Positions 9,360 through 58,279 of a stretch of 64,000 nucleotides of DNA are shown piece by piece (position 1 is the stretch's first letter; each line of letters begins with the position of its first letter). A model generated the notes under the pieces. It saw nothing but the letters and a program-made list of their open reading frames with translations, did no database searches and had not been told where the DNA came from. This DNA comes from a virus: positions 32,001-96,000 of IMG/VR virus record IMGVR_UViG_3300035670_000058. One strand, written 5' to 3'. The position numbers and the translations under genes were made by a program.

Positions 9360-9992
9360 TTGGCTTTACCGCACACAAAGAATATCTTTGACTATCCGCC
9401 CCGGTTTCAATTCGGGCAATCAGGGGCACCGTGCAACGGTCAATCATGTTGCACAGATACTTGTATCCAGATGATAGTAGATTTCTACAAGGATGATCAC
9501 AACTCCTTGGCAGAGATTCGACGCAAGGCACAGAATAAATATGCATTCGATGAGCGTCCATGCACTGGCATCAACCACCTTGAAGCGCTTAATGCACTAT
9601 CCCAGTATGGCTTAGGACATTACAAAGCTGGCTTCGGTGTTGATGCCGGCGATGTATGGAATTATGTTGCTACTGGACCTGTACTTGTAGGTGTCTGGTA
9701 CGGAAGTTATCCGAATGAGCATGGATATTGTGGTGGGATAAAAGCAGAATACGAGGGCAGAACTGACTGTGGATTCAGAGGAACCCATGCTGTTCTTGCA
9801 ATAGGGCGACGTTGGCATAACGGGCATCGTGATATCTATGTACGTGACCCAGATCATAACTCTCCGTCACGACCAGAGCGACCCAAGTATGATATCGTTC
9901 GTCTTCCTGACTTGAATAGAGCAATGCGGAATATTGTTCCGTATTCACCATTCACGAATACTTATGCAATTTACCCTACACGAAGAAAATAG
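9360..9992 (+). CDS. Papain-like (C39-like) cysteine peptidase
   Basis: Q..SC catalytic Cys region, HAVLAIG His, YVRDP Asp. Confidence 0.65.
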   Translation: MALPHTKNIFDYPPRFQFGQSGAPCNGQSCCTDTCIQMIVDFYKDDHNSLAEIRRKAQNKYAFDERPCTGINHLEALNALSQYGLGHYKAGFGVDAGDVWNYVATGPVLVGVWYGSYPNEHGYCGGIKAEYEGRTDCGFRGTHAVLAIGRRWHNGHRDIYVRDPDHNSPSRPERPKYDIVRLPDLNRAMRNIVPYSPFTNTYAIYPTRRK

Positions 9993-26635: not shown

Positions 26636-26890
26636 CTAGTGACTCCGCTTAGGGACAATCACCAGATCGAATCCTAAGGCATCTACAAGGGCCGCAAGCC
26701 ACACTACCCGTGTAGGATACAGCCCACGCTCATACTTTGATACAGTTGAAAGTGAAATCCCTGCTTTATCTGCAACCTGTTGCTGAGACAGTTGATTGCG
26801 TAAACGCTCAGACCTAGCAAGTGTCATAATACCATCAAGTAAGGATTTACCTCTAGCCTGATGATTCTGGGTAAGGTCAAGTCTACGCAT
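26636..26890 (-). CDS. XRE/Cro-family HTH regulator
   Basis: R.RNQLSQQQVADKAGISLSTVSKYERG; SD GGAGG. Confidence 0.88.
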   Translation of the reverse strand: MRRLDLTQNHQARGKSLLDGIMTLARSERLRNQLSQQQVADKAGISLSTVSKYERGLYPTRVVWLAALVDALGFDLVIVPKRSH

Positions 26891-31515: not shown

Positions 31516-32538
31516 TCATGCCGCAGTTTCATCCACTTTGTAAGGCATAGGTTTGATAGGTTCTGCCCACATCAAAATTCTGCGGTACTTGTTTGACTTT
31601 ACATCGTCATAAACATGTACGCGCAGTTTGAAACCACGGGTAGCAAAATAGTTGTATAGCGTTCTAAACGGGTTGTTCCCCCTTTCTAGTGGCATTTGAT
31701 AATCGACAAACAATGTTTTGCCGGCGAGCAAATCTTTGACTAGGGGAGAATCAATTTCTTGGCGCACATAGGTATCCCTAGTCCTAATACCAGCACGCCA
31801 CGTATTTGGCACTACCTTATACTTATACTCCATATAAGCATAATTAGGCGCTGGTTTATCCATGCGCTTATGCTTTTTCCAGTAATAGCGACGTGATGAA
31901 GCACGCCGCATTTCTTTCTTCTCTTCAGGTGTCATGGATTACCAACCGTCACATCCATCGTAATAACTATCCACTTCCCCTTTGAGATTGTACTGAAAAT
32001 CAAAAAGCGCTGTAGATGATGCAGCAGGAGTGCCGCAACTTCTACAACGCGCAACGCGACCTTTTAGGCTGATTGTTTCTCTAGCCTTTTTGGGGTTAGA
32101 GTGTAGGCACGAAGAACAAACAGGGATTTTACTCCCTTCATGATCTGTCCATCTAGAGGTGGAAACGTGCCCACAGGCCATGACAACACTTGGCTCGACC
32201 ATAATAATCTCCATAGTCGATATCATGTACCGATTATATCAAATTCGTCAAGACTTGTCCATACCAGACTTTCTATATCGGGCACGTAGGGACAGGAGCA
32301 AGGATTCCAGCCCAACAGTCTCTTCACCAAGTTGCTTCAATTCAAAGACAATTTGGAAGAGATCGCTCACAGGAATCTGGATGGAGTTGAGATCACCATC
32401 ATAAGGCTTGGACGAAGCCAGAGCCTCTACAACGGCATTCGTTGCAAGGTACATGGCTTGAATTGTCCCGTCGCCTTTATACTCCCCTGCTAGTTTTTCT
32501 AACAGGAGAATTTGTCTACGGGCCTCAGAAATGCTCAT
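31516..32538 (-). CDS. Three hypothetical proteins (31516-31935, 31939-32226, 32248-32538)
   Basis: Co-directional packed ORFs; SD AAGGAGG before 32538. Confidence 0.55.
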
Positions 32539-46662: not shown

Positions 46663-47094
46663 GAATTACGCCGGCACCTCTGTTACATGGAGAGTTTTTT
46701 AATTATATTTATATCAGTATATATACGTAATTGACACCTTTTATTCCTAGGCAATTGCGCAGCCAATGGAGCGCAGCGTATTTTAGAGGCGTATTGCCTT
46801 GGAATAATATATCCTTTTTTATATGGATTTAGCCAATAGACTACGAACACAGAGTAAGTCAGTATTATTTAGCCAATGGAGCGCGCCGCCTAATAGGTAC
46901 GTATTATCCTGGAGAATATAGAATGAAATTGAATTAGAATTAAGCTCCGGTTACTGTTACGATATATACAATATATTTATATCTATTTGCCAGCTCTTGC
47001 AGCTTATCCCTTTACCACCTGGCCTTGCCTAGCTGATTGCGCATGCAATTGTCTGTCCCTATAAAATTCATTTGTTGCGATTTGCAAATAATGC

Positions 47095-47123
47095 TTGACA
47101 AGCGCCGCGCGGTGTGCGACAAT
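47095..47123 (+). promoter_or_regulatory. Sigma70-type promoter of cassette A
   Basis: TTGACA-17-GACAAT with TG extension. Confidence 0.75.
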
Positions 47124-47239
47124 CCTCTTGTACCCGAAAGGGAGCACCTTTACAAGAGAATAGAGAGGGCAAGGCGAAAGGTAGCCTAATTCTCCGTCCT
47201 GACTAACTAGCATTTATGCTAGAGAAAGGAGGTGAAAAT

Positions 47240-47536
47240 ATGGCAACGTATCATATCGCCAAGATGCGTGTCGTGCGGCCATCCGAAAAGATGGCGGCAA
47301 AGCATCCCGACCGTTTCGCAACGGTTTTCGGTATCTTTGCTAATGAGCAGGGGCAGCGGCTTAGCATTACGTCTAAGGTAATTACCATTGACGAGGCTAA
47401 GGATAGCGATACTACGATTGACATCGTGAATGGTATTCTTACTCTTCCCGATGGAAAGCGTGGTCGCACCGCTTCCGAATCCATTTCGCAGGACGATATC
47501 GAAGCGGAACTCGCAGCGCTTCGCGGAGAGAATTAG
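47240..47536 (+). CDS. Cassette A protein (98 aa), paralog of cassette B
   Basis: SD AAAGGAGGTG; MRVVRP...PDR..TV.G.F...LSI..K.....AK......V.NG.LTLP.GKRGR....AELAALRGE shared with B. Confidence 0.85.
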   Translation: MATYHIAKMRVVRPSEKMAAKHPDRFATVFGIFANEQGQRLSITSKVITIDEAKDSDTTIDIVNGILTLPDGKRGRTASESISQDDIEAELAALRGEN

Positions 47537-47999
47537 TTACTAATTAGCCAAAACCCTCTCTATTCTCAGAAAGGATAAACTAATACTGAATTAGTATTAT
47601 AAAACGAATTGAATTTCGATGCCGGCCAGGTTCTTGAGCCAATGGAGCGTAGCGTATATCAGGTACGCCATATATATTTGAATTTGAATTATGTTCTTGT
47701 TCTTGTTATATATCCTGGATTATATTTGAATTTAAATTCTGTTCCTGTTTTATATTTTAGCCAATAGATTTCCATTCTCATCTGGGGGGGGGTGAGCCAA
47801 TAGAGGGGGGGGGATGAATGCCGGCCAAGCTCACCGACAATGTGAGAATAGAGCCTGTGGGCGACCAATACATTGGTCAGTATTGTCCACCTAGAAACAC
47901 TTGACAGGGTATGCGCCTTGTGGCAGTATATGGGTGTCAGAGATGACAGGGACCCGAGAGGGACCCGAGAACCTTAACAAGTGAATAGCAGGGGATAGG

Positions 48000-48401
48000 G
48001 TGACAAGGCCCGACAAGGGCGAAAGGGAAACTCCCATTAGCGTCACCTACTTCGTGGATCGGATGCGCGTCATCCGGCCCACAGGGAAGACCAAGGATCG
48101 GAACCCTGATCGGGTCTTCACCGTCAACGGCGTCTTCTACTCCACCGAGAGGGATGCCAAGGGCAACATCATCGTCAAGGACAAGTTGTCCATCATCACC
48201 AAGAACGTGGACGTGGATGACGCCAAGTCCACCGAATTCGCCCTTGACGTGACGAACGGCTACCTGACGCTCCCTGAGGGGAAGCGTGGCCGGGTCGCAC
48301 AGGCGGGGCTGGCAGAGGCGGATATCCTCGCGGAATTGGCCGCGCTGCGTGGCGAGGACACCGACGACACCGAAACCGAAACCGAAACGGAAACCGACTA
48401 G
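48000..48401 (+). CDS. Cassette B protein, paralog of A (true start uncertain, possibly ATT 48036)
   Basis: Clear similarity to 47240..47536; promoter TTGACA 47901; acidic TE-repeat tail. Confidence 0.8.
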   Translation: MTRPDKGERETPISVTYFVDRMRVIRPTGKTKDRNPDRVFTVNGVFYSTERDAKGNIIVKDKLSIITKNVDVDDAKSTEFALDVTNGYLTLPEGKRGRVAQAGLAEADILAELAALRGEDTDDTETETETETD

Positions 48402-48801
48402 GTATTAATTCACCCATCCCCTGCTATTCCTACCAATTTAATGAGAATGCCGGCGAGCTGCATATATATACAAATTAAGAATTGAATAAGAAATCTTAAC
48501 CTGTTTACTAAATAAGCCAATAGACTCCCGGCTCAATTGGAGGGGGGAAGCCAATGGAGGGGGGTGGCATAAAGGGACGCCCATACCTGGGATATATGCG
48601 CATATTCGAATTGAATTCGAATTGCCGTTCTGTTCCTGTTTTAGTGAATTGAATTAGCGCACCTGTTCGGTTACGTGCAACGCGCACAGGGATACCTGGC
48701 CGAGCCGGCCAGTAGCTGCGCGTGCAACTACCCTGGATTCGACGCGCACGGCAAAGCCCTACCCGAAGGGGTAGGGCTTGCCTGTTGGGAAGGACTAGGG
48801 A

Positions 48802-49083
48802 CTAGTCGATCATCTCCTCGTAGGGCTTGTCGAAGAAGCCACCGGGGACCGACTCGTTGAGCCTGTCCCACAGGTTCCGCGCTTCCGCGTTCATGTCGCG
48901 GTCACGCATTTCCTGATGGATGAGGTAGAGGCCAAAGGTGACCTCATCGACGGTCGGGACGCCAAGGTCCACGCCCACCGATTCCTGAAGGAGAGCCAAG
49001 GGGAACATGGTGTCGGTACCCTCGTAACCGAAATCCACCAGTGCCCCGTAATCGAGTCCCTTCAGGTACTCAATCGGGTCCAT
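48802..49083 (-). CDS. Cassette C protein (93 aa, acidic), family with E and H
   Basis: SD GGAAGGA before ATG 49083; hairpin at ~48750-48782. Confidence 0.75.
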   Translation of the reverse strand: MDPIEYLKGLDYGALVDFGYEGTDTMFPLALLQESVGVDLGVPTVDEVTFGLYLIHQEMRDRDMNAEARNLWDRLNESVPGGFFDKPYEEMID

Positions 49084-49663
49084 TATTCGGTTATCCTTCC
49101 CTGTTGCCTTGGGTTCTTCCCTTCCCCTTGGGGTCGGTCCCTGCTGTTTCCGACATCCATAGATTAGCACGACCACCATAGGGATGAAGAGCTCAATGTC
49201 ACAAGAATTCGTGACCAATGGCACTATGCAAGCGCCGGCAATTGTGCTACAATCCTCTGGGACAGCCCAGGGTGCGAAGCCAATAGAATGCGTCAGCAGA
49301 CTGGGGCGTGAGCCAATGGAGCGCAGCGTGTATGTTGGGCGCATGGAATATACAGTAGATGAGTATTAGAATTGAACTGCGGTTCTGTTCCTGTACTGTA
49401 GAGGATTAGCCGTTCTGTTCTGTTAGGTATATGGTGTATAGCAAGGTGCCGGCTTCGCGCCATTTCACGCTATCCTGGATGAATCTATACTGATTCGCTA
49501 TGATATAGGCTCGATTTGTCCTGGTCTATTGAGCTATCCAAGCCGGCTCAAATCGCCCAATAATCGATTATTCTGGGCGCAAGAAACCCCTTGACAACAT
49601 TCACCAGGTGCGCTAATCTACTGGTAGATCAAGAAACGCTCCTACAGGGAAGGGACACCAGAA

Positions 49664-49909
49664 ATGTTGGACGCAGCGACACTCATCGAGGACGGGTACG
49701 ACCCGGACATGGCGGCGAAAGAATTGATGGAGGATGCACAATTCATCATCAGCGATCTGGCCGAGGATCTTCGCAGCCAGGATCGCAGACTACAGGATGC
49801 ATTCTCTGGGCAGGAAATCCCCGAAATCGTCTGGGACGCGATCTGCGCCATCAAGGCGACGGTCAAACATCTCGATAGCGCGGAGGATGCACTGGTCCGA
49901 TATATGTGA
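49664..49909 (+). CDS. Cassette D protein (81 aa, acidic helical)
   Basis: TTGACA-17-TAATCT (49591-49619); hairpin 49921-49957. Confidence 0.75.
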   Translation: MLDAATLIEDGYDPDMAAKELMEDAQFIISDLAEDLRSQDRRLQDAFSGQEIPEIVWDAICAIKATVKHLDSAEDALVRYM

Positions 49910-50306
49910 ATAACCGAATATATTAGTGCGGGGGTAATACATACTCCCGCACTAATACATAGCCCTGGAGTAATATATAAGTCCTGGGGTACTAGAATAG
50001 AATATAAATAAATCTTAACAATAAGAAATCTTAACCTGTTTAGTAAATTAGCCAATGGAACGCATGCATAAAAATGCACGCCGAGCCAATGGAGCGTATA
50101 TATAATATTGGGCGGGTGTGTGTTTGAATACGAATTGAACATCCGTTCTGTTCCTGTTTGAATAGCACCTCGATTCCTGTTATGCGCATAAGCGCATAGC
50201 ACGCGCATAGCGTGCGCCTAGGCGTGAGCTTGCCGGCCCTATGGGCCAGGCACTTGAGCATGGTGATAGGGGAGAGGCTTTCGCGCTCTCCCCTATCTGC
50301 TAGAGT

Positions 50307-50612
50307 CTAGTAGTTGACGGGCTTGGTGGACCGGACGAACGAGGCGTACTCGCTGTAGGTCTGGTCCTCAAGGATCGTGCCGTTCGGAGAAGCGGCGTTG
50401 ATCCGGTTGAAGAGATCGACTGCATCCCCGTCCAGATCGCGCCACACCAGATGGGCGTGGATCATCTGGGAGAGAAGAGTGTCGGTGGAGATGGTGTAAG
50501 GATCGCCGCTCTTGACTGCCTCCGCGTAGAGGCTGGCCTCCTCCTGTGCAATCGCCACCAGAACGTGATCCGGCACGATGCTCAGGTAGACCATCATCTC
50601 TTCAGGCCCCAT
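50307..50612 (-). CDS. Cassette E protein (101 aa)
   Basis: SD AAAGGA; hairpin ~50264-50297; similarity to C and H. Confidence 0.75.
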   Translation of the reverse strand: MGPEEMMVYLSIVPDHVLVAIAQEEASLYAEAVKSGDPYTISTDTLLSQMIHAHLVWRDLDGDAVDLFNRINAASPNGTILEDQTYSEYASFVRSTKPVNY

Positions 50613-51050
50613 CTATTCAGTTATCCTTTCCTACTGCTGGCCCCTCTGGCCCTGTCAGATCGTGTATCGATCTGATAGGTGTATCTTCGTCTATAGCGCT
50701 ATCATGATATAGGTCCATATGGGGTAGATATTTGTGACCAATGGCACTTGACACACAGGGGATGATGTGCTAGCCGGCAAATAGAACAGGCGTTCTAAAG
50801 CTGTGCGAGCCAATAGATTCAACATCCATTGAATGGCGCATGAGCCAATGGAGCGTGCCGCGTGTATGGGGCGCAGGAATATATACCAACTATGTATTAG
50901 AATCGAATATCGGTTCTGTTCCTGTCATAATGAATTAGCCTGATGTGTTGTTCTGTTATATCTCCTGAGGCCGGCTGTGCGCCTCTCCTGTGAGTCGCCT
51001 GGCCCTAGGGCAAAGAGAAAGGACCGGGTGTCCAGCCCGGTCCTTAGTCT

Positions 51051-51299
51051 CTAGCGGAAGTCGATATCCAGAATGGTCAGGCTTCCGTCGCTGATTTCCT
51101 TCTGTAGAGCATCGACTTCGATTTCGATGCGAGCGATCTTGGTATGGAGAGTATCGAGGATTTCCGCGAGAGCGATCTGCTCCTCGTTATCATCGGTGAT
51201 TTCGGTGATCTGATCAGCGATCTGGTTGACCCACCAATTCGCGTCACCAATCTGCCCGATGACCTTCTCCAGCCCTTCGATCAGAAGGTCTGTATTCAC
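51051..51299 (-). CDS. Cassette F protein (82 aa, acidic coiled coil)
   Basis: SD GAAGGAAGGA before GTG 51299; hairpin ~51019-51045. Confidence 0.7.
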   Translation of the reverse strand: MNTDLLIEGLEKVIGQIGDANWWVNQIADQITEITDDNEEQIALAEILDTLHTKIARIEIEVDALQKEISDGSLTILDIDFR

Positions 51300-51840
51300 T
51301 TGGGTCCTTCCTTCGCTACTGGCCTGGCCTGTCCTTATTGGGGACAAGCCCATTGTGCGCCTATTCCGCTGATATGTCAATACCCTTTATGCAGTTGGTC
51401 ACTATTGTCCACCTATTCTGTGAGCAGTACAAAGGTCCCAAAAGATGTGACATTTGGCCCTTGACAGGAGCCGGCAGATATGCTAGCTCTACTTGCATAC
51501 TTGCGCAAGCAGCTAAGTGACAAAAGTCACAAAAAAATGTGACAAATGGCACTTGACAAAGCCAATAGACTCCAGGCTCTATCCTGGGCGCAAGCCAATG
51601 GACCTAGCCTTATATCTTGGACGCATGTATGAATATACTGATATACGCATATATGGATGAATTGAATTACGAATTCGGTTCTGTACATGTTCTGTTATAT
51701 GGCCTGGCCTGTTAGGCTGTTCTGTTATAGAGATATAGCGCGATGAATTCCTGGCCGGCTGGTGAGCTTTCCCACGCGCATGGGCCAGGCGATGGGCAAA
51801 GAGACAGGGCCGGGATCGCTCCCGGCCCTGTCGCCTCACC

Positions 51841-52146
51841 CTAGGCTGTAGGGTGGGCCGCTTCGAACGGCATTCCCCGTCCGATCCCCGTCCGATGGGC
51901 GTTAGCCGCATCGTAGAGGCGCTTAGCGATGCCACGGTGACGACGCCAGATCGCTTCGTCCACCAGCCGATCCACCAGCGCGGCAATCGTGCGAGGATCG
52001 ATTTCCTCGCCCGTCACCAGCACCAGCGTGAGGCTACCGGACTCTTCGATCTGCTCCGCGAGGCTGCGAGCCATAGCGAAGATCGCGCCCGACGACTGCT
52101 CCCGCAGATCGAGTGCGATGGGATCGAACATTTGGCCTAGCACCAT
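51841..52146 (-). CDS. Cassette G protein (~100 aa)
   Basis: SD AGGAAAGGA; hairpin 51803-51832 directly after the stop. Confidence 0.65.
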   Translation of the reverse strand: MVLGQMFDPIALDLREQSSGAIFAMARSLAEQIEESGSLTLVLVTGEEIDPRTIAALVDRLVDEAIWRRHRGIAKRLYDAANAHRTGIGRGMPFEAAHPTA

Positions 52147-52664
52147 CCTTTCCTATATCACCTTGGAACAAGGTGATTGTACGCCTCGCGGCTAATAGAT
52201 ACCTAGGGCCAAAAGTCCCGAAAAAAAGTGACAAATGGCCCTTGACAAGCTATGCCGGCATATGTTAGGGGCCAGGTTAAGAAATCTTAGCTTGTTTAGT
52301 AAACTAAGCCAATGGAGCGTGTACTATAAATGGTACGCCCGTTCTATTTCCAGGGCTTGAGCCAATGGACCTAGCCTTATTAGGGGGGCGCAGGAATATA
52401 TCACTGATTGAATTAGAATTGAATTACGGTTCTGTTAGGATTACATACCAATCCAAGTTCTGTTATGCGCATGTATGTATCCTGGGCACATATATCGCCG
52501 GCTGATATATTCCTGGCCTAGCAGTAGCTTGTTGCCGGCGCAACAGCTCATGCGGCATGAAGTATATATTGGTCACTATTGTCCACCCGAATTCTCTTGA
52601 CACAGCCAGGTGCATCCGGTACGCTTAGCCTGCGTCCAGCGGCAAAGATAGTACGGGAGATGAC

Positions 52665-53018
52665 ATGGACCAGAACGGCGGCACTCAGGACTTCCTGAGC
52701 GAGATCGCGCACGCGACATGGATCGCGTGCAACCCTCAGACCACATCCCCTGCCGACGTCGAGGAATTGGGTATCCTCGCAATCCGCGATCTCAACGCAG
52801 CCATCGAGAATGGCGACTACATGATGGCGACCGTAGCCAACGCAATCGTGTCCACCGTCCATCGCGCAATGGTCTGCCGGGGAATGTTCCTCGACGCGAC
52901 CGATCTCTTCTGCCGGGTCAACGCTACTGCCAAGAGCATCGGCATCGATGACATGCTCGACGGGCAGACCTACACCGAATACGTCGAGGCGATCCTCGAC
53001 TGGTACGCTCAGGCGTAG
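52665..53018 (+). CDS. Cassette H protein (117 aa)
   Basis: TTGACA-17-TACGCT (52597-52625); SD GGGAG; hairpin ~53032-53058; similarity to E. Confidence 0.78.
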   Translation: MDQNGGTQDFLSEIAHATWIACNPQTTSPADVEELGILAIRDLNAAIENGDYMMATVANAIVSTVHRAMVCRGMFLDATDLFCRVNATAKSIGIDDMLDGQTYTEYVEAILDWYAQA

Positions 53019-53457
53019 CGATCCACTAGGGTAGGGAGGCTAGCAATAGCCTCCCTATTCCTGTTGCCCTGGCCAGGGGCGCATATATATGCATGCATAC
53101 TCATACAATGGGTATGCAATATTGCGTATAGACGCAATAGAACATCCGTTCTGTTTCGTTCTGAGCCAATGGAGCGTGCGCTGTTATAGGTGCGCCCATG
53201 TTCTGCGCATAGTGTACCGTTCTGTGTTCTGTTATATAGGGCCGGCTATACGATAGGTCCTGGGGTAAGCTTTACCTTGAGCTATATGGCCGGCTCTATA
53301 TCTAATACCTGGGTATACCTTACATCTAGGTATAAGGTACACCTTATAACTTCAGGCCATCTTGGTGACATTTGGCCCATTGACAGTGACCAATGGCATA
53401 TAGTAGAGTACGGGCATGGTCATCTACTTCCACTCCACTAGCACAGGGGGCCACGCT

Positions 53458-53993
53458 ATGGCACCGGATAGGCGCGATGCGCGCGTTGCAGCGCGGATCG
53501 CACAGGCGCAGGATCGCGCTGCGCGCGATGCTCGCAACACTGCGCGCGACAATGGCAAGTCAGAGTCAGATACGGCATACGATTACAGGATGGGAGCGGC
53601 ACAGTGAAGCGCAATCAGGCGCATCCCTGCTACGTCAACGGCAACACCCCTACGGGCATGGCGCATATGCCCATTGGCCGCTACGTGGAGTCAGTCCGCT
53701 ACGGCGCATCCCTCACAATCGGCAACATCGTCCGTCGCAACGCTCTCCGCTACATGCTGGACGATGCCGCACAGGTCGCCGACACCGATACCACAATGGC
53801 GCTGCTAGATACAATCGAACACTACACTCCCAGTGTGCCGCGCTGCATGGGCACCGACACCGACTGCAACCACACACAGTCGGTGCACGACTGGGATGGA
53901 TGCTTGCACGATACGTGCGAGTGCACCCTGCGATACGGTCGCGGTGTCAATCGACTCAATGAGATGATCATGGCAGAGGGATACATGATCTGA
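53458..53993 (+). CDS. Cassette I: two coupled small proteins (53458-53607; 53604-53993 with Cys/His cluster)
   Basis: TTGACA 53380; GTGA overlap; C.H....H....C.H..CEC; hairpin ~54014-54044. Confidence 0.6.
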
Positions 53994-54331
53994 CTTTCAC
54001 AACTCAAATTCACAATTAGGGCCGGTTATACGCCGGCCCTAATTCATATTACCCAGGTTGCGTGATTGCGCAAGTACGCAAGACCCCCCCCTATATTCGC
54101 ATCGAATTAGTGCACATTCAACGCCGTCGAGCTCTGTTACTGTACATAAATCCGAGGTCAACTTTTTGAAACTTTTTAGAATACGTCTGCCTTCATTCTG
54201 AAGGTACTATACAAAAATACGAGGTCAATTTTTTCCAGTTTTTTAGAAGACCTCTAGAGTAAAAAAATGGGAGCAAAAATTTCACAGTTTTTTAGATAAC
54301 TCTCGTCATAGTATACGGTAAAATTGGGCAT

Positions 54332-57814: not shown

Positions 57815-58279
57815 ATGTCACTCACAAAGAAACCTAAAATATATGACTACTACGTCCTAGTGTATAAGCCCTCTCACCCCGCAGTTGTGGGCGATGGCTA
57901 TGTACCTGAACAGATTCTCGTTGCAGAAGAAGAACTAGGACGTTACCTATATCCAGACGAATCAGTACGACACAAGAACGGGGACACAAATGACAATAGG
58001 CCAAGTAACTTGGAGGTTGTATCGGCTAGCCACGGATACAAGATAGTTAATCTTGGTACTGAGCATGTTGAACCCCGCAAGGGTGCTTCTCGCACGTTTA
58101 TGCCTTGCAAGTTTCAGAAGCCGTGCTGGAAAGAGATTAGAGCGCCTATGGCGAGAAAGCACAAGATTTACCTTCCCTACATTTGCAGTTATCAGGAGTC
58201 AGGGGATGTATACAAGTGTTCAAGATTTTGGGGTTATGTTGATAAAGTTACAGAAGAAAGAGGGAGCGATAAAAATTGA
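57815..58279 (+). CDS. HNH endonuclease-domain protein
   Basis: GYVPE..LVAEE.LGRYL...E.V.HKNGD..DNRPSNL. Confidence 0.8.
   Translation: MSLTKKPKIYDYYVLVYKPSHPAVVGDGYVPEQILVAEEELGRYLYPDESVRHKNGDTNDNRPSNLEVVSASHGYKIVNLGTEHVEPRKGASRTFMPCKFQKPCWKEIRAPMARKHKIYLPYICSYQESGDVYKCSRFWGYVDKVTEERGSDKN

Follow-up and report, generated by a model that had tools for sequence, protein, structure and literature searches.

A polarised array of single-gene, early-type cassettes between composite modules in a new lineage of tailed phages

Where one short motif recurs about every 760 bp on a single strand of a phage genome, while the genes between its copies change in identity, length and direction, the question arises of what maintains the spacing and the polarity. 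Such an array lies in the window analysed here, a stretch of 64,000 nt (positions 32,001 to 96,000 of IMG/VR record IMGVR_UViG_3300035670_000058) within a complete 114,680-bp genome (G000), which was compared with a complete 120-kb relative (G001) and with metagenome contigs. This uncultured phage and its relatives are a new lineage of tailed phages with genomes of about 115-120 kb. A sequence-only reading had proposed either that unit length and polarity are under selection, as in a phased lattice at a first-injected genome end, or that the region is an exchangeable array of early genes. Our preferred reading, to which we assign a probability of roughly 0.5, is an array of early ORFan genes transcribed by the host RNA polymerase and accompanied by composite, array-specific cis modules, the period arising from unit duplication rather than from selection for a lattice.

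A scan of the window found 19 exact matches to AGCCAATRGA, 100% of them on the + strand and spanning 46761-53173, and the remainder of the 114,680-bp genome added only one further exact copy. With one mismatch allowed, 30 matches were obtained, versus 9.7 +/- 2.8 in shuffled sequences (0 of 100 shuffles reached 30). The pairs of this 10-mer reported earlier in modules 2 to 8, and the further exact sites in modules 1, 2 and 9, were recovered at exactly the same positions (Table 1), as were the steps between successive second motifs (754, 762, 773, 759, 750, 767 and 804 bp, with 766 bp from 46871 to 47637), and the autocorrelation of 8-mers has maxima at 760, 1520, 2280 and 3040 bp. The near-constant unit length held as a ~760-bp period, but not for one irregular interval of 924 bp (46871 to 47795), which is due to an extra half-module at 47637-47755. 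Spacing within pairs is 33-36 bp, as described, for six pairs, but 40 and 53 bp for two others, and is 33-43 bp among relatives. The proposed helical phasing failed, with second motifs out of register at 0, 0, 8.5, 4, 0, 3, 7.5, 8 and 3.5 of 10.5.

Table 1 Features of the array, in window coordinates (10-mer, AGCCAATRGA).
Feature	Coordinates	Strand	Content
Whole array	46731..54060	+	9 units; flanks on the left and right conserved, both aligning with G001
Module 1	46761..46965	+	10-mer x3 (46761, 46831, 46871), GAGAATATAG, AAATTGAATTAGAATT, CCGGTTACTGTTAC
Cassette 1	47095..47567	+	promoter TTGACA-17-GACAAT (47095-47123); g1 47240-47536, 98 aa, FAM1
Cassette 1, enclosing repeat	47156-47169 / 47554-47567		exact 14-nt 5'/3' inverted repeat
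Module 2	47606..47830	+	irregular: single 10-mer 47637 with GAATT and GTTCT words, then pair 47759/47795, GCCGGC
Cassette 2	47873..48429	+	Q word TTGGTCAGTATTGTCCACC; promoter TTGACA (47901); g2 48000-48401, 133 aa, FAM1 paralogue
Cassette 2, repeat	47983-47999 / 48413-48429		17-nt 5'/3' inverted repeat
Module 3	48479..48710	+	AAGAAATCTTAAC dyad, 10-mer pair 48515/48549, GAATTGAATT, GAAT-N4-GTTC + GTTCTGTTCCTGT, GCCGGC
Cassette 3	48750..49260	-	g3 48802-49083, 93 aa, weak paralogue of g5/g8; 3' hairpin 48750-48782; GTGACCAATGGCAC dyad 49211
Module 4	49278..49455	+	10-mer pair 49278/49311, GGAATATA, GAAC-N4-GTTC (49374), GTTCTGTT x4, GCCGGC
Cassette 4	49591..49960	+	promoter TTGACA-17-TAATCT; g4 49664-49909, 81 aa, orphan; hairpin 49918-49960
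Module 5	50010..50240	+	AAGAAATCTTAAC dyad, 10-mer pair 50050/50084, GAAC-N4-GTTC (50137), GTTCTGTTCCTGT, TGCGCATA words, GCCGGC
Cassette 5	50268..50780	-	g5 50307-50612, 101 aa, g8 paralogue, L069 orthologue 49% aa; 5'-UTR hairpin 50651-50679; GTGACCAATGGCAC-TTGACA 50734-50753
Module 6	50784..50975	+	GAAC-N4-GTTC (50784), 10-mer pair 50808/50843, GGAATATA, GAAT-N4-GTTC, GTTCTGTTCCTGT, GCCGGC
Cassette 6	51014..51558	-	g6 51051-51299, 82 aa, coiled-coil-like; promoter TTGACA-17-CACAAT (51380-51352); hairpin 51014-51050
Right of cassette 6		+	Q and GTGAC-N4-GGC dyads; two TTGACA (51461, 51553)
Module 7	51560..51760	+	10-mer pair 51560/51593, GAATATA, GAATTGAATT, GTTCTGT x3, GCCGGC
Cassette 7	51794..52270	-	g7 51841-52146 (start probably residue 6); hairpin 51794-51841; GTGACAAATGGCCC-TTGACA 52228-52247
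Module 8	52276..52540	+	AAGAAATCTTAGC dyad, 10-mer pair 52307/52360 (53 bp apart), GGAATATA, GAATTAGAATTGAATT, GAAT-N4-GTTC, GTTCTGTT x2, GCCGGC x2
Cassette 8	52569..53060	+	Q word; promoter TTGACA-17-TACGCT (52597); g8 52665-53018, 117 aa, g5 paralogue in opposite orientation; hairpin about 53030-53058
Module 9	53131..53295	+	degenerate 10-mer (GCAATAGA), GAAC-N4-GTTC (53140), 10-mer 53164, GTTCTGT words, GCCGGC x2
Cassette 9	53365..54056	+	two dyads around TTGACA-18-TAGAGT (53380); g9a 53458-53607; g9b 53604-53993; hairpin 54018-54050

The module is a composite cis element of roughly 170-250 bp that keeps a single direction whatever the orientation of the genes. At its core AGCCAATRGA occurs once or twice, and behind every copy lies a short stretch, GC-clamped with an AT centre and prone to form a hairpin, that closes with GGnCGC; next come an AT-rich block of GAATT repeats and a GAAC-N4-GTTC-like dyad running into GTTCTGTT(C/A). 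Most of the downstream words previously described as ordered are present (GGGCGCA-GGAATATA, GAATTGAATT, CGGTTCTGTTCCTGT and GCCGGC), but GAATATA occurs in some modules only; the AAGAAATCTTA word was confirmed at 48488, 50023 and 52279. The dyad is exact in four modules, with a one-mismatch form (GAAT) in three more, and 4 of its 6 genome copies lie inside the array, an enrichment seen for the N4 spacing only. Genome-wide, GTGAC-N4-GGC, TATTGTCCACC, GTTCTGTT and GAATTGAATT hardly occur outside the array or on the minus strand, 18 of 34 GCCGGC copies fall inside it, on both sides of most cassettes, and CCWGG, which is scarce in the genome, has half of its copies there. LexA operators of the B. 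subtilis type, or Cheo boxes, have the pattern GAAC-N4-GTTC (PMC4234289). The array dyad, which lies where the GAATT block meets GTTCTGTT, fits this as a pattern match alone and, unlike the Cheo box, continues into additional GTTC(C)TGTT repeats. A search of the phage for S24 or LexA-like genes found none.

Each interval between modules holds one promoter-gene-hairpin unit, and the gene orientations (+,+,-,+,-,-,-,+,+) are as first read. Typically, a host-type consensus promoter of the form TTGACA, 17 nt, TAnnnT, in many cases with TG upstream, precedes a single small, acidic orphan gene, and a hairpin closes the unit. The array makes up 6.5% of the genome, yet 6 of 28 genome-wide matches to the promoter pattern head its genes and a seventh lies inside g1. 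Its GC content is 0.51-0.56, versus ~0.44 elsewhere in the window, and that of the cassette genes is 0.51-0.64, versus 0.44 for the genome. Paralogy links g1 with g2 (FAM1, for which no Pfam, PHROG or fold match was found) and g3, g5 and g8, the latter group occurring in both orientations here and in the relative L069; homologues of g7 were found in 4 clusters only. Judging from promoter shape alone, the cassettes would be expressed early. The array lies mid-record, with a block of small and replication genes on either side, and is far from the terminase and structural genes.

The 10-mer is shared by G001 and 19 metagenome contigs, giving about 90 distinct sites, without exception on the strand that encodes FAM1, a family conserved in the array. 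G001 has 8 sites on the same strand at ~750-bp spacing, and in 19 of 20 metagenome loci, all found via FAM1, the 10-mer is on the FAM1 strand, an association that may reflect shared ancestry alone. Positions 1 and 10, unused for selection, are 98% A in relatives, and the bases adjoining the ~90 sites have almost no information content. Outside the 10-mer, module identity among relatives is about 50-70%, most genes are unalignable, and the only oriented words common to 8 of 8 relatives are AGCCAAT and GTTCTGT, with TAGAACnnnnGTTCTGT also recurring. The module words are specific to the array and to one strand, and they stay unchanged even across deep divergence. Word order within the module is kept among relatives but the period is not rigid, at 714-990 bp: units measure 725-990 bp, which speaks against the proposed selection on unit length, and orthologous units differ by <= about 65 bp. 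For the polarity, also thought to be selected, descent as direct repeats is the simplest account.

The comparison supports a conserved array in which single-gene cassettes of early type, facing either way, alternate with polarised modules of ordered motifs; over evolutionary time cassettes have come and gone as whole units (9 units in G000, 5 in L070 and L069, 4 in G001), in agreement with an exchangeable array. L069 joins its g2' straight to the g5 orthologue (49% amino-acid identity), whereas G000 has g3 and g4 between g2 and g5, and g6 and g7 further on. Since orthologues keep their orientation, g5 being on the minus strand in both, flipping is ancient rather than ongoing. Modules cluster by position across genomes rather than by genome, and recombination between them is therefore rare, not continual; the extra G000 modules (49311, 51593, 52360) are nearest to other G000 modules, and crossover points within modules are weakly resolved. 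The lack of a recombinase noted for the window extends to both complete genomes, which have neither a Tyr/Ser recombinase nor a Y1 HUH transposase, so that turnover must rely on general recombination; searches of both for RecT and YqaJ recombination proteins were negative, and neither has a sigma factor. Unit length in G000 is far less variable (sd 17; 8 when the last unit is left out) than gene length (sd 52), and duplication descent explains such uniform units only if the unalignable g4, g6 and g7 are very diverged copies.

It is possible, albeit unlikely, that the modules are instead non-coding RNA genes of ~200-260 nt or cis RNA elements (antiterminator or processing site) transcribed rightward, in which AGCCAAURGA would be a single-stranded recognition word before a variable hairpin, twice per RNA. 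Consistent with this, the 28 nt 3' of the 10-mer fold better than shuffled sequences (-5.6 vs -3.8 kcal/mol, p = 1.6e-6, 92 sites), the + strand folds better than its complement (p = 6e-4), which suggests G-U pairs, and stem sequences vary between paralogous modules (GCGTA/TACGC, GCGC/GCGC, TTCAA/TTGAA, CCAGG/CCTGG). Moreover, + strand TTGACA lies 0-60 nt upstream of modules that follow minus-strand cassettes (49225, 50748, 51553, 52242), and such modules run up to the bidirectional hairpin of the minus-strand gene that follows, likewise in L069 and L084. However, the -10 elements at these sites are poor (TAGCCG, TTAGGG, TAGCTC), and in G001 and L084 the dyad-TTGACA points leftward into the preceding module; the direction of this element therefore follows the cassette, not the module. 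Whole-module folding is also unremarkable (z of -0.5 to -1.8 in 4 of 8 modules, +1.3 in a fifth, best -4.0), many hairpins are weak, GGnCGC after each 10-mer is a fixed sequence rather than a covarying partner, and the modules have no Rfam match.

We consider improbable a polar DNA lattice at a genome end that enters first or is exposed, serving as a T5-like injection pause, for strand-specific nicks or as Chi-like exonuclease stops. The leading ends of T5, T7 and SPO1 are rich in host-type promoters, and the array is the densest set of these; the one-strand placement of 19 of 19 sites, often doubled, three DnaA-box-like words (TATTGTCCACC) and the concentration in the array of CCWGG, depleted genome-wide, also fit. 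Against this, modules alternate with genes and form no untranslated block, the array's position is remote from terminase and structural genes, and neither helical nor strict length phasing is seen. At 10 nt the word also exceeds the known Chi sites in length, and the record's 127-bp terminal repeat has a typical assembly-overlap size and looks like such an overlap. In T5 the stop signal occupies 1.66 kb of untranslated sequence that contains inverted repeats and 8 paired DnaA boxes; it is located in a roughly 10-kb terminal repeat and adjoins the conserved dmp, A1 and A2 genes (10.1101/866236). Nothing like it is present here, and the suggested first-step-transfer or nicking lattice is unsupported. 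The array does recall the T5 pre-early region in its cluster of small early genes, host-type promoters, ordered repeats, palindromes and DnaA-box-like words, and the phage recalls T5 in its size of about 115-120 kb and its tRNAs, PolA, DnaB-like helicase and RNR, but short direct-repeat modules here alternate with genes mid-record, and the large terminase has 23.5% identity to its single database match, a non-T5-like phage.

More improbable still is an integron-like or invertase-driven site-specific system, with the modules or flanking GCCGGC palindromes as recombination sites. Cassettes in both orientations, GCCGGC on both sides of most of them and whole-unit differences among relatives would fit, and integrons share the row of single-gene cassettes, the structured, variable, motif-bounded sites and a cassette number that varies between relatives. 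Nevertheless, the complete genomes have no integrase, no other Tyr or Ser recombinase and no Y1 transposase, the cassettes have their own promoters, which integron cassettes do not, and run in either direction, orthologue orientation is constant, the modules are not attC-like imperfect palindromes, and GCCGGC enrichment is partly due to the higher GC of the array. Least probable of all, plain decaying tandem duplication with functionless words would account for the period, for the g1/g2 and g3/g5/g8 paralogy and for the likeness of extra G000 modules to local copies, but is already contradicted by the strand, invariance and shared oriented words in relatives, where decay is not even: the 10-mer is invariant at ~90 sites despite FAM1 identities of just 38-72%, with near-uninformative adjoining bases, a mean module column identity of 49% and retained word order.

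Under the preferred reading of an early array with cis modules, the region would be of immediate-early, host-takeover type, a row of independent mini-operons whose modules are probably protein-binding or regulatory sites that also provide homology for unit gain and loss. The modules would be recognised by array-dedicated or host DNA-binding proteins, candidates being a LexA-type dyad binder and the two FAM1 proteins, which in every case come first in the array, and the bound proteins could coordinate or shut off early promoters and insulate neighbouring units. As direct repeats, the modules could allow general homologous recombination to duplicate, delete or import units, which would yield the ~760-bp period and common polarity by descent, while the high GC of cassette genes may suit host translation before phage tRNAs are made. 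An experimentally supported precedent is found in the PeSL (promoter-early stem-loop) elements of T4-type phage hyperplastic regions (Arbiol et al. 2010, PMC2839356; Comeau et al. 2014, PMC4122927), where conserved intergenic repeats likewise surround small early orphan genes, one at a time, with stem-loops and promoters of the host sigma-70 type, relatives differ in which whole gene units have been inserted, deleted or replaced, and general recombination between repeats, without a dedicated recombinase, is the proposed driver. The PeSL repeat, however, is itself the promoter and terminator (about 70 bp) and its genes share its direction, whereas here a 170-250-bp multi-word module stands apart from the genes' own, dissimilar promoters and hairpins, its direction is fixed whichever way the gene runs, and its invariant 10-mer has no promoter-like shape. 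The array is closest to the shuffling "regulatory cassettes" of T4-type phages, rather than to a T5-style injection lattice.

Nine promoter-gene-hairpin units, separated by intergenic modules that all point in one direction, make up the array, and the sequence-only reading of its motif, spacing and word order was confirmed as a whole. Exact matches to AGCCAATRGA number 19 in the array, every one on the + strand and at the positions given by the sequence-only reading, with one further exact copy in the rest of the genome, and allowing one mismatch yields 30 matches versus 9.7 ± 2.8 in shuffled sequences. The proposed period of ~760 bp is recovered by 8-mer autocorrelation (peaks at 760, 1520, 2280 and 3040 bp) and, independently, by repeat families spaced 749-773 bp; the words that follow the motif in fixed order were likewise found, as was AAGAAATCTTA. 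The regularity had been overstated, though: one supposedly near-constant interval is 924 bp owing to an extra half-module at 47637, two of the supposedly tight motif pairs have spacings of 40 and 53 bp, and the units are out of helical phase with one another. Compositionally, all six genomic copies of GGGGGGG lie in the array, on the + strand, with runs of 8-9 G flanking the motif copies of modules 2 and 3; GCCGGC flanks most cassettes (18 of its 34 genome copies are in the array); and the scarce CCWGG (63 copies genome-wide) has 32 copies in 46700-54100, mostly as ATCCTGGA-like words in AT-rich spacers, the + strand carrying the T.

Structurally, each module opens with an optional TTAAG-N4-CTTAA-like dyad and then has AGCCAATRGA once or twice; behind every copy of this motif come ~13 variable bases, an AT-rich centre and GGnCGC. 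The module continues with GGAATATA and GAATT repeats, then a GAAC-N4-GTTC-like dyad that is joined directly to GTTCTGTTCCTGT, and lastly GCCGGC. Modules are direct, non-palindromic repeats whose words are nearly restricted, genome-wide, to the array and the + strand, and TAGAACnnnnGTTCTGT recurs in the modules of relatives. The array holds four of the six exact GAAC-N4-GTTC copies in the genome and seven of the ten GAAY-N4-GTTC copies, with none at N3, N5, N6 or N7 spacing, and these dyads lie clear of the mapped promoters; they match the pattern of the LexA operator (Cheo box) of the B. subtilis/Gram-positive type, an operator that LexA binds over a regulated promoter, and the match is one of pattern only. 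No convincing promoter was found in the conserved module: promoters, upstream dyads and hairpins all lie outside it and vary by unit. Several candidate functions for individual words were rejected, including a −35 role for AGCCAATRGA, paired with GAATATA or with a TATA downstream of it (spacings misfit and vary), a promoter formed by the 10-mer, N17 and GTTCTGTTAC as arranged in distant relatives (the spacing here is 55-96 nt), GTTACATA as a promoter word used across the phage genome (one exact copy in the genome, and five to six scattered copies of looser patterns), a short peptide from the ATG inside AGCCAATGGAG (reading frames not conserved), a sigma-54 promoter within the GTGAC-N4-GGCAC-TTGACA element (GG-N10-GC spacing right in one copy only), and the 10-mer as half-site of a GTGACCAATGGCAC dyad (CCAAT of the dyad not conserved).

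Ten array ORFs with ribosome-binding sites were placed (see table). Four of the nine cassettes lie on the minus strand, and each has its own promoter, of host-type consensus (TTGACA-17-GACAAT, -CAGTAT, -TAATCT, -TACGCT or -CACAAT; TTGACA-18-TAGAGT). This pattern has 28 matches genome-wide, six of which head array genes while a seventh is inside g1, with the array making up 6.5% of the genome. Unit-specific dyads (GTGAC-N4-GGCAC; TTGGTCAsTATTGTCCACC, hereafter Q) precede promoters, and hairpins lacking a clear U-tract close the genes. Two sets of paralogues occur in the array: g1 with g2 (family FAM1) and, weakly related (E = 1e-5 to 1e-8), g3 with g5 and g8, the latter set including both orientations; g4, g6, g7 and g9 match no other array gene. 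No ORF of the ten had a significant Pfam or PHROG match (best E ~0.001-0.01, all below curated cut-offs), the best PHROG match being that of g4 to a minor tail protein family (E = 0.009, not significant), and g5 and g7 have one to four homologue clusters among billions of proteins. Twelve separate stretches of P0084, a metagenome protein of 1065 amino acids, match g7 residues 63-93, so that the C-terminal portion of g7 may represent a stand-alone copy of such a repeat.

Coordinates of the array, its genes and associated features (window positions unless a contig is named)
Feature	Position	Strand	Remark
Array	46731-54060	+	nine units
g1	47240-47536	+	ORF with ribosome-binding site
g2	48000-48401	+	ORF with ribosome-binding site
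g3	48802-49083	-	ORF with ribosome-binding site
g4	49664-49909	+	ORF with ribosome-binding site
g5	50307-50612	-	ORF with ribosome-binding site
g6	51051-51299	-	ORF with ribosome-binding site
g7	51841-52146	-	ORF with ribosome-binding site
g8	52665-53018	+	ORF with ribosome-binding site
g9a	53458-53607	+	ORF with ribosome-binding site
g9b	53604-53993	+	ORF with ribosome-binding site
GAAC-N4-GTTC, exact	49374, 50137, 50784, 53140		4 of 6 genome copies
GAAC-N4-GTTC, GAAT variant	48619, 50905, 52421
g2 promoter regions compared	47860-47925; L067 ~9790-9880; L070 ~2215-2290; L084 1930-1990
FAM1 inverted repeats	47156-47169 / 47554-47567; 47983-47999 / 48413-48429
FAM1 inverted repeat	L084 ~1205-1220 / 1587-1601
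FAM1 inverted repeat	L066 ~8880-8860 / 8455-8436	-
G runs, modules 2 and 3	47784-47812, 48540-48556		8-9 G
HTH_3 protein	26663-26812	-	~100 aa
Two 51-nt direct repeats	54138-54255		80% identical
HNH_3 endonuclease gene	57815-58279	+	overlaps RNR start

The array resides in a 114,680-bp IMG/VR phage genome rated complete, with the window covering its bases 32001-96000. The genome record closes on a 127-bp overlap; the 127-bp "direct terminal repeat" of the record looks like this assembly overlap, not a physical terminus. Encoded are a large terminase, portal, tail proteins, DnaB-like helicase, primase, PolA, RNR, tRNAs and a Ro60-like protein. The terminase has a single database match, in an uncultured mangrove-soil phage, at only 23.5% identity, and the phage is thus far from any isolate. 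No DNA similarity to the array was found among the 50,697 phage records searched, and the array region is richer in GC (0.51-0.56) than the genome elsewhere (~0.44). Pfam and PHROG searches of nine array-neighbour proteins matched only an SLT-domain protein and an HNH_3 endonuclease. An HNH_3 homing-type endonuclease gene lies directly before that of the RNR large subunit and overlaps its start. Immediately right of the array lie two 51-nt direct repeats that start with the CTGTTACTGTACATAAAT word and include T-runs, one copy being kept in a complete relative (G001); an ORF-poor stretch adjoins them on their right. The genome has a sole HTH_3 (XRE-type) DNA-binding protein, with another in G001, and this protein is a candidate to bind an N4-spaced dyad of the array.

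G001 (120,336 bp) is the other complete phage recovered by a pattern scan. Its syntenic region has eight same-strand 10-mers ~750 bp apart, and it encodes g1 and g2 orthologues together with a g5/g8-like gene. Twenty further FAM1-encoding contigs came from metagenomes of freshwater sediment, wetland and soil; in 19 of them the 10-mer lies on the same strand as FAM1, at intervals of 714-990 bp. Across ~90 distinct sites, positions 1 and 10 of the 10-mer, which lay outside the selection, are A in 98%, the flanks are almost information-free, and AGCCAAT and GTTCTGT are the only oriented words common to all eight arrays examined. These conserved sites and shared oriented words, together with the GC-rich cassette genes of relatives (0.55-0.68), rule out an evenly decaying tandem duplication.

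Relatives differ by whole units, with nine in the source phage, five in contigs L070/L069 and four in G001, so the earlier proposal of an exchangeable early cassette array is supported on an evolutionary scale. In L070/L069, the g2 orthologue (g2') is followed directly by a g5 orthologue (49% amino-acid identity) on the minus strand, as in the source phage, and g3 plus g4 and g6 plus g7 are therefore extra units of the latter. Modules cluster by position across genomes, the extra ones being closest to other modules of the source phage; position, not genome, determines clustering, and concerted evolution was rejected. A switch of similarity in a sliding comparison, itself weakly resolved, faintly suggests a crossover within the module after g2', just past the GTTCTGTT word. 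Orthologues of g2 carry two unrelated promoter regions, of the Q type in the source phage and L068 and of the paired GTGAC-N4-GGCAC dyad type in G001, L070 and L084, and regulatory pieces have thus likewise been swapped between close relatives.

The sequence-only reading had also suggested a phased protein-binding or nicking lattice. Units in the source phage do measure 767 ± 17 bp versus a standard deviation of 52 for gene length, with the non-coding remainder compensating. Among 36 units at 15 loci, however, unit length is 819 ± 72 bp (range 725-990), orthologous units differ by up to ~65 bp (the g2 unit is 754, 766, 790 and 725 bp), and pair spacing covers 33-43 bp, the range of a full helical turn. 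Because both unit lengths and pair spacing vary among relatives, and with no helical register, a strict lattice is not supported. Duplication of a unit would preserve its length while reading frames drift, as would inversion of its gene part, and together these would explain the tight period, provided that those genes that do not align are ancient copies or size-matched replacements.

Among known systems, the promoter-early stem-loop (PeSL) cassettes of T4-type phages are the closest: in both, repeated regulatory elements flank small orphan early genes in a variable region, relatives differ unit-wise, and a dedicated recombinase is missing. However, the PeSL element combines a sigma-70-like early promoter with a terminator stem-loop, whereas the module is neither promoter nor terminator but a separate, longer, oriented, multi-word element independent of gene direction. 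In PeSL arrays the flanked genes are non-essential, breakpoints between relatives fall within the repeats, and neighbouring elements recombine to give mini-circles. Integrons also differ, having an IntI tyrosine recombinase beside the array and cassettes that lack promoters, share one direction and end in attC imperfect palindromes, whereas these cassettes have their own promoters and both orientations; PF00589 (tyrosine recombinase) is missing from both complete genomes (positive controls were found in 14 of 14 genomes), as are sigma-70 region 2, serine recombinase, Y1 transposase, RecT, YqaJ and S24 peptidase. The suggested parallel to T5 first-step transfer is unsupported: the T5 stop signal is one untranslated block of 1.66 kb whose inverted repeats carry paired DnaA boxes, set within a direct terminal repeat of about 10 kb at the entering end and beside the conserved pre-early genes dmp, A1 and A2 (10.1101/866236), no such block was found in the array, non-coding stretches of at most ~530 bp alternate with genes, and the three DnaA-box-like words are unpaired and directly upstream of promoters.

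Functionally, FAM1 is a natural candidate for a reader of the module, and it stands at the head of every array found. Its 79 homologues are all from metagenomes; none was found in 185,579 species genomes, and G001 was the only IMG/VR hit. A FAM1 model (pLDDT 79) had no Foldseek match, ESM Atlas returned solely unnamed viral clusters (0.82-0.84), and an Sm-like barrel was rejected (best VIA-align Z = 3.3, too weak to use), leaving no convincing solved fold. The g1 and g2 mRNAs are each enclosed by a 14-17-nt inverted repeat between 5′-UTR and 3′-UTR, whose sequence varies among g1, g2 and the G001 and L084 orthologues while complementarity is maintained; the pairing resembles an RNA stalk, perhaps a helix for RNase III-type processing or for stabilisation.

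The main rival to recognition as DNA is that the module acts as RNA. The 28 nt 3′ of each 10-mer fold better than shuffles, the + strand better than its complement; paralogous modules have different stems; and a + strand TTGACA element after minus-strand cassettes reads into the next module. On the other hand, the module has no Rfam match, TTGACA elements facing modules have poor −10 boxes, the same element points leftward in G001 and L084, and GGnCGC is a fixed sequence and does not act as a pairing partner. Folding of the whole module is ordinary in five of eight cases, and a stably folded whole-module RNA was rejected. On these grounds, we favour DNA-level protein recognition of the module. 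A more ambitious reading, to which we assign a low probability of roughly 15%, is that the module would be a dedicated early-region organiser, an oriented nucleoprotein or RNA element (the AGCCAATRGA-plus-hairpin doublet and the GTTCTGTT dyad) read by the universally conserved FAM1 pair, through which the array would be switched on or off as one and would offer a fixed-size slot for orphan genes of either direction with their own promoters. If so, unit length would be functionally constrained, not merely inherited.

Early regions are home to the least understood phage genes, for example those for host takeover and anti-defence, and it is a general open question how gene turnover in them leaves regulation intact. 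It is a clean natural system, with an invariant, traceable 10-mer, at least 20 environmental relatives of three to nine units, cassettes of either direction, and the conserved FAM1 pair as a possible reader of the module. Should the module be a binding site or an RNA, the PeSL idea would extend from recombining promoter repeats to a separate, dedicated boundary element, and the array would offer a ready scaffold to test orphan early genes.
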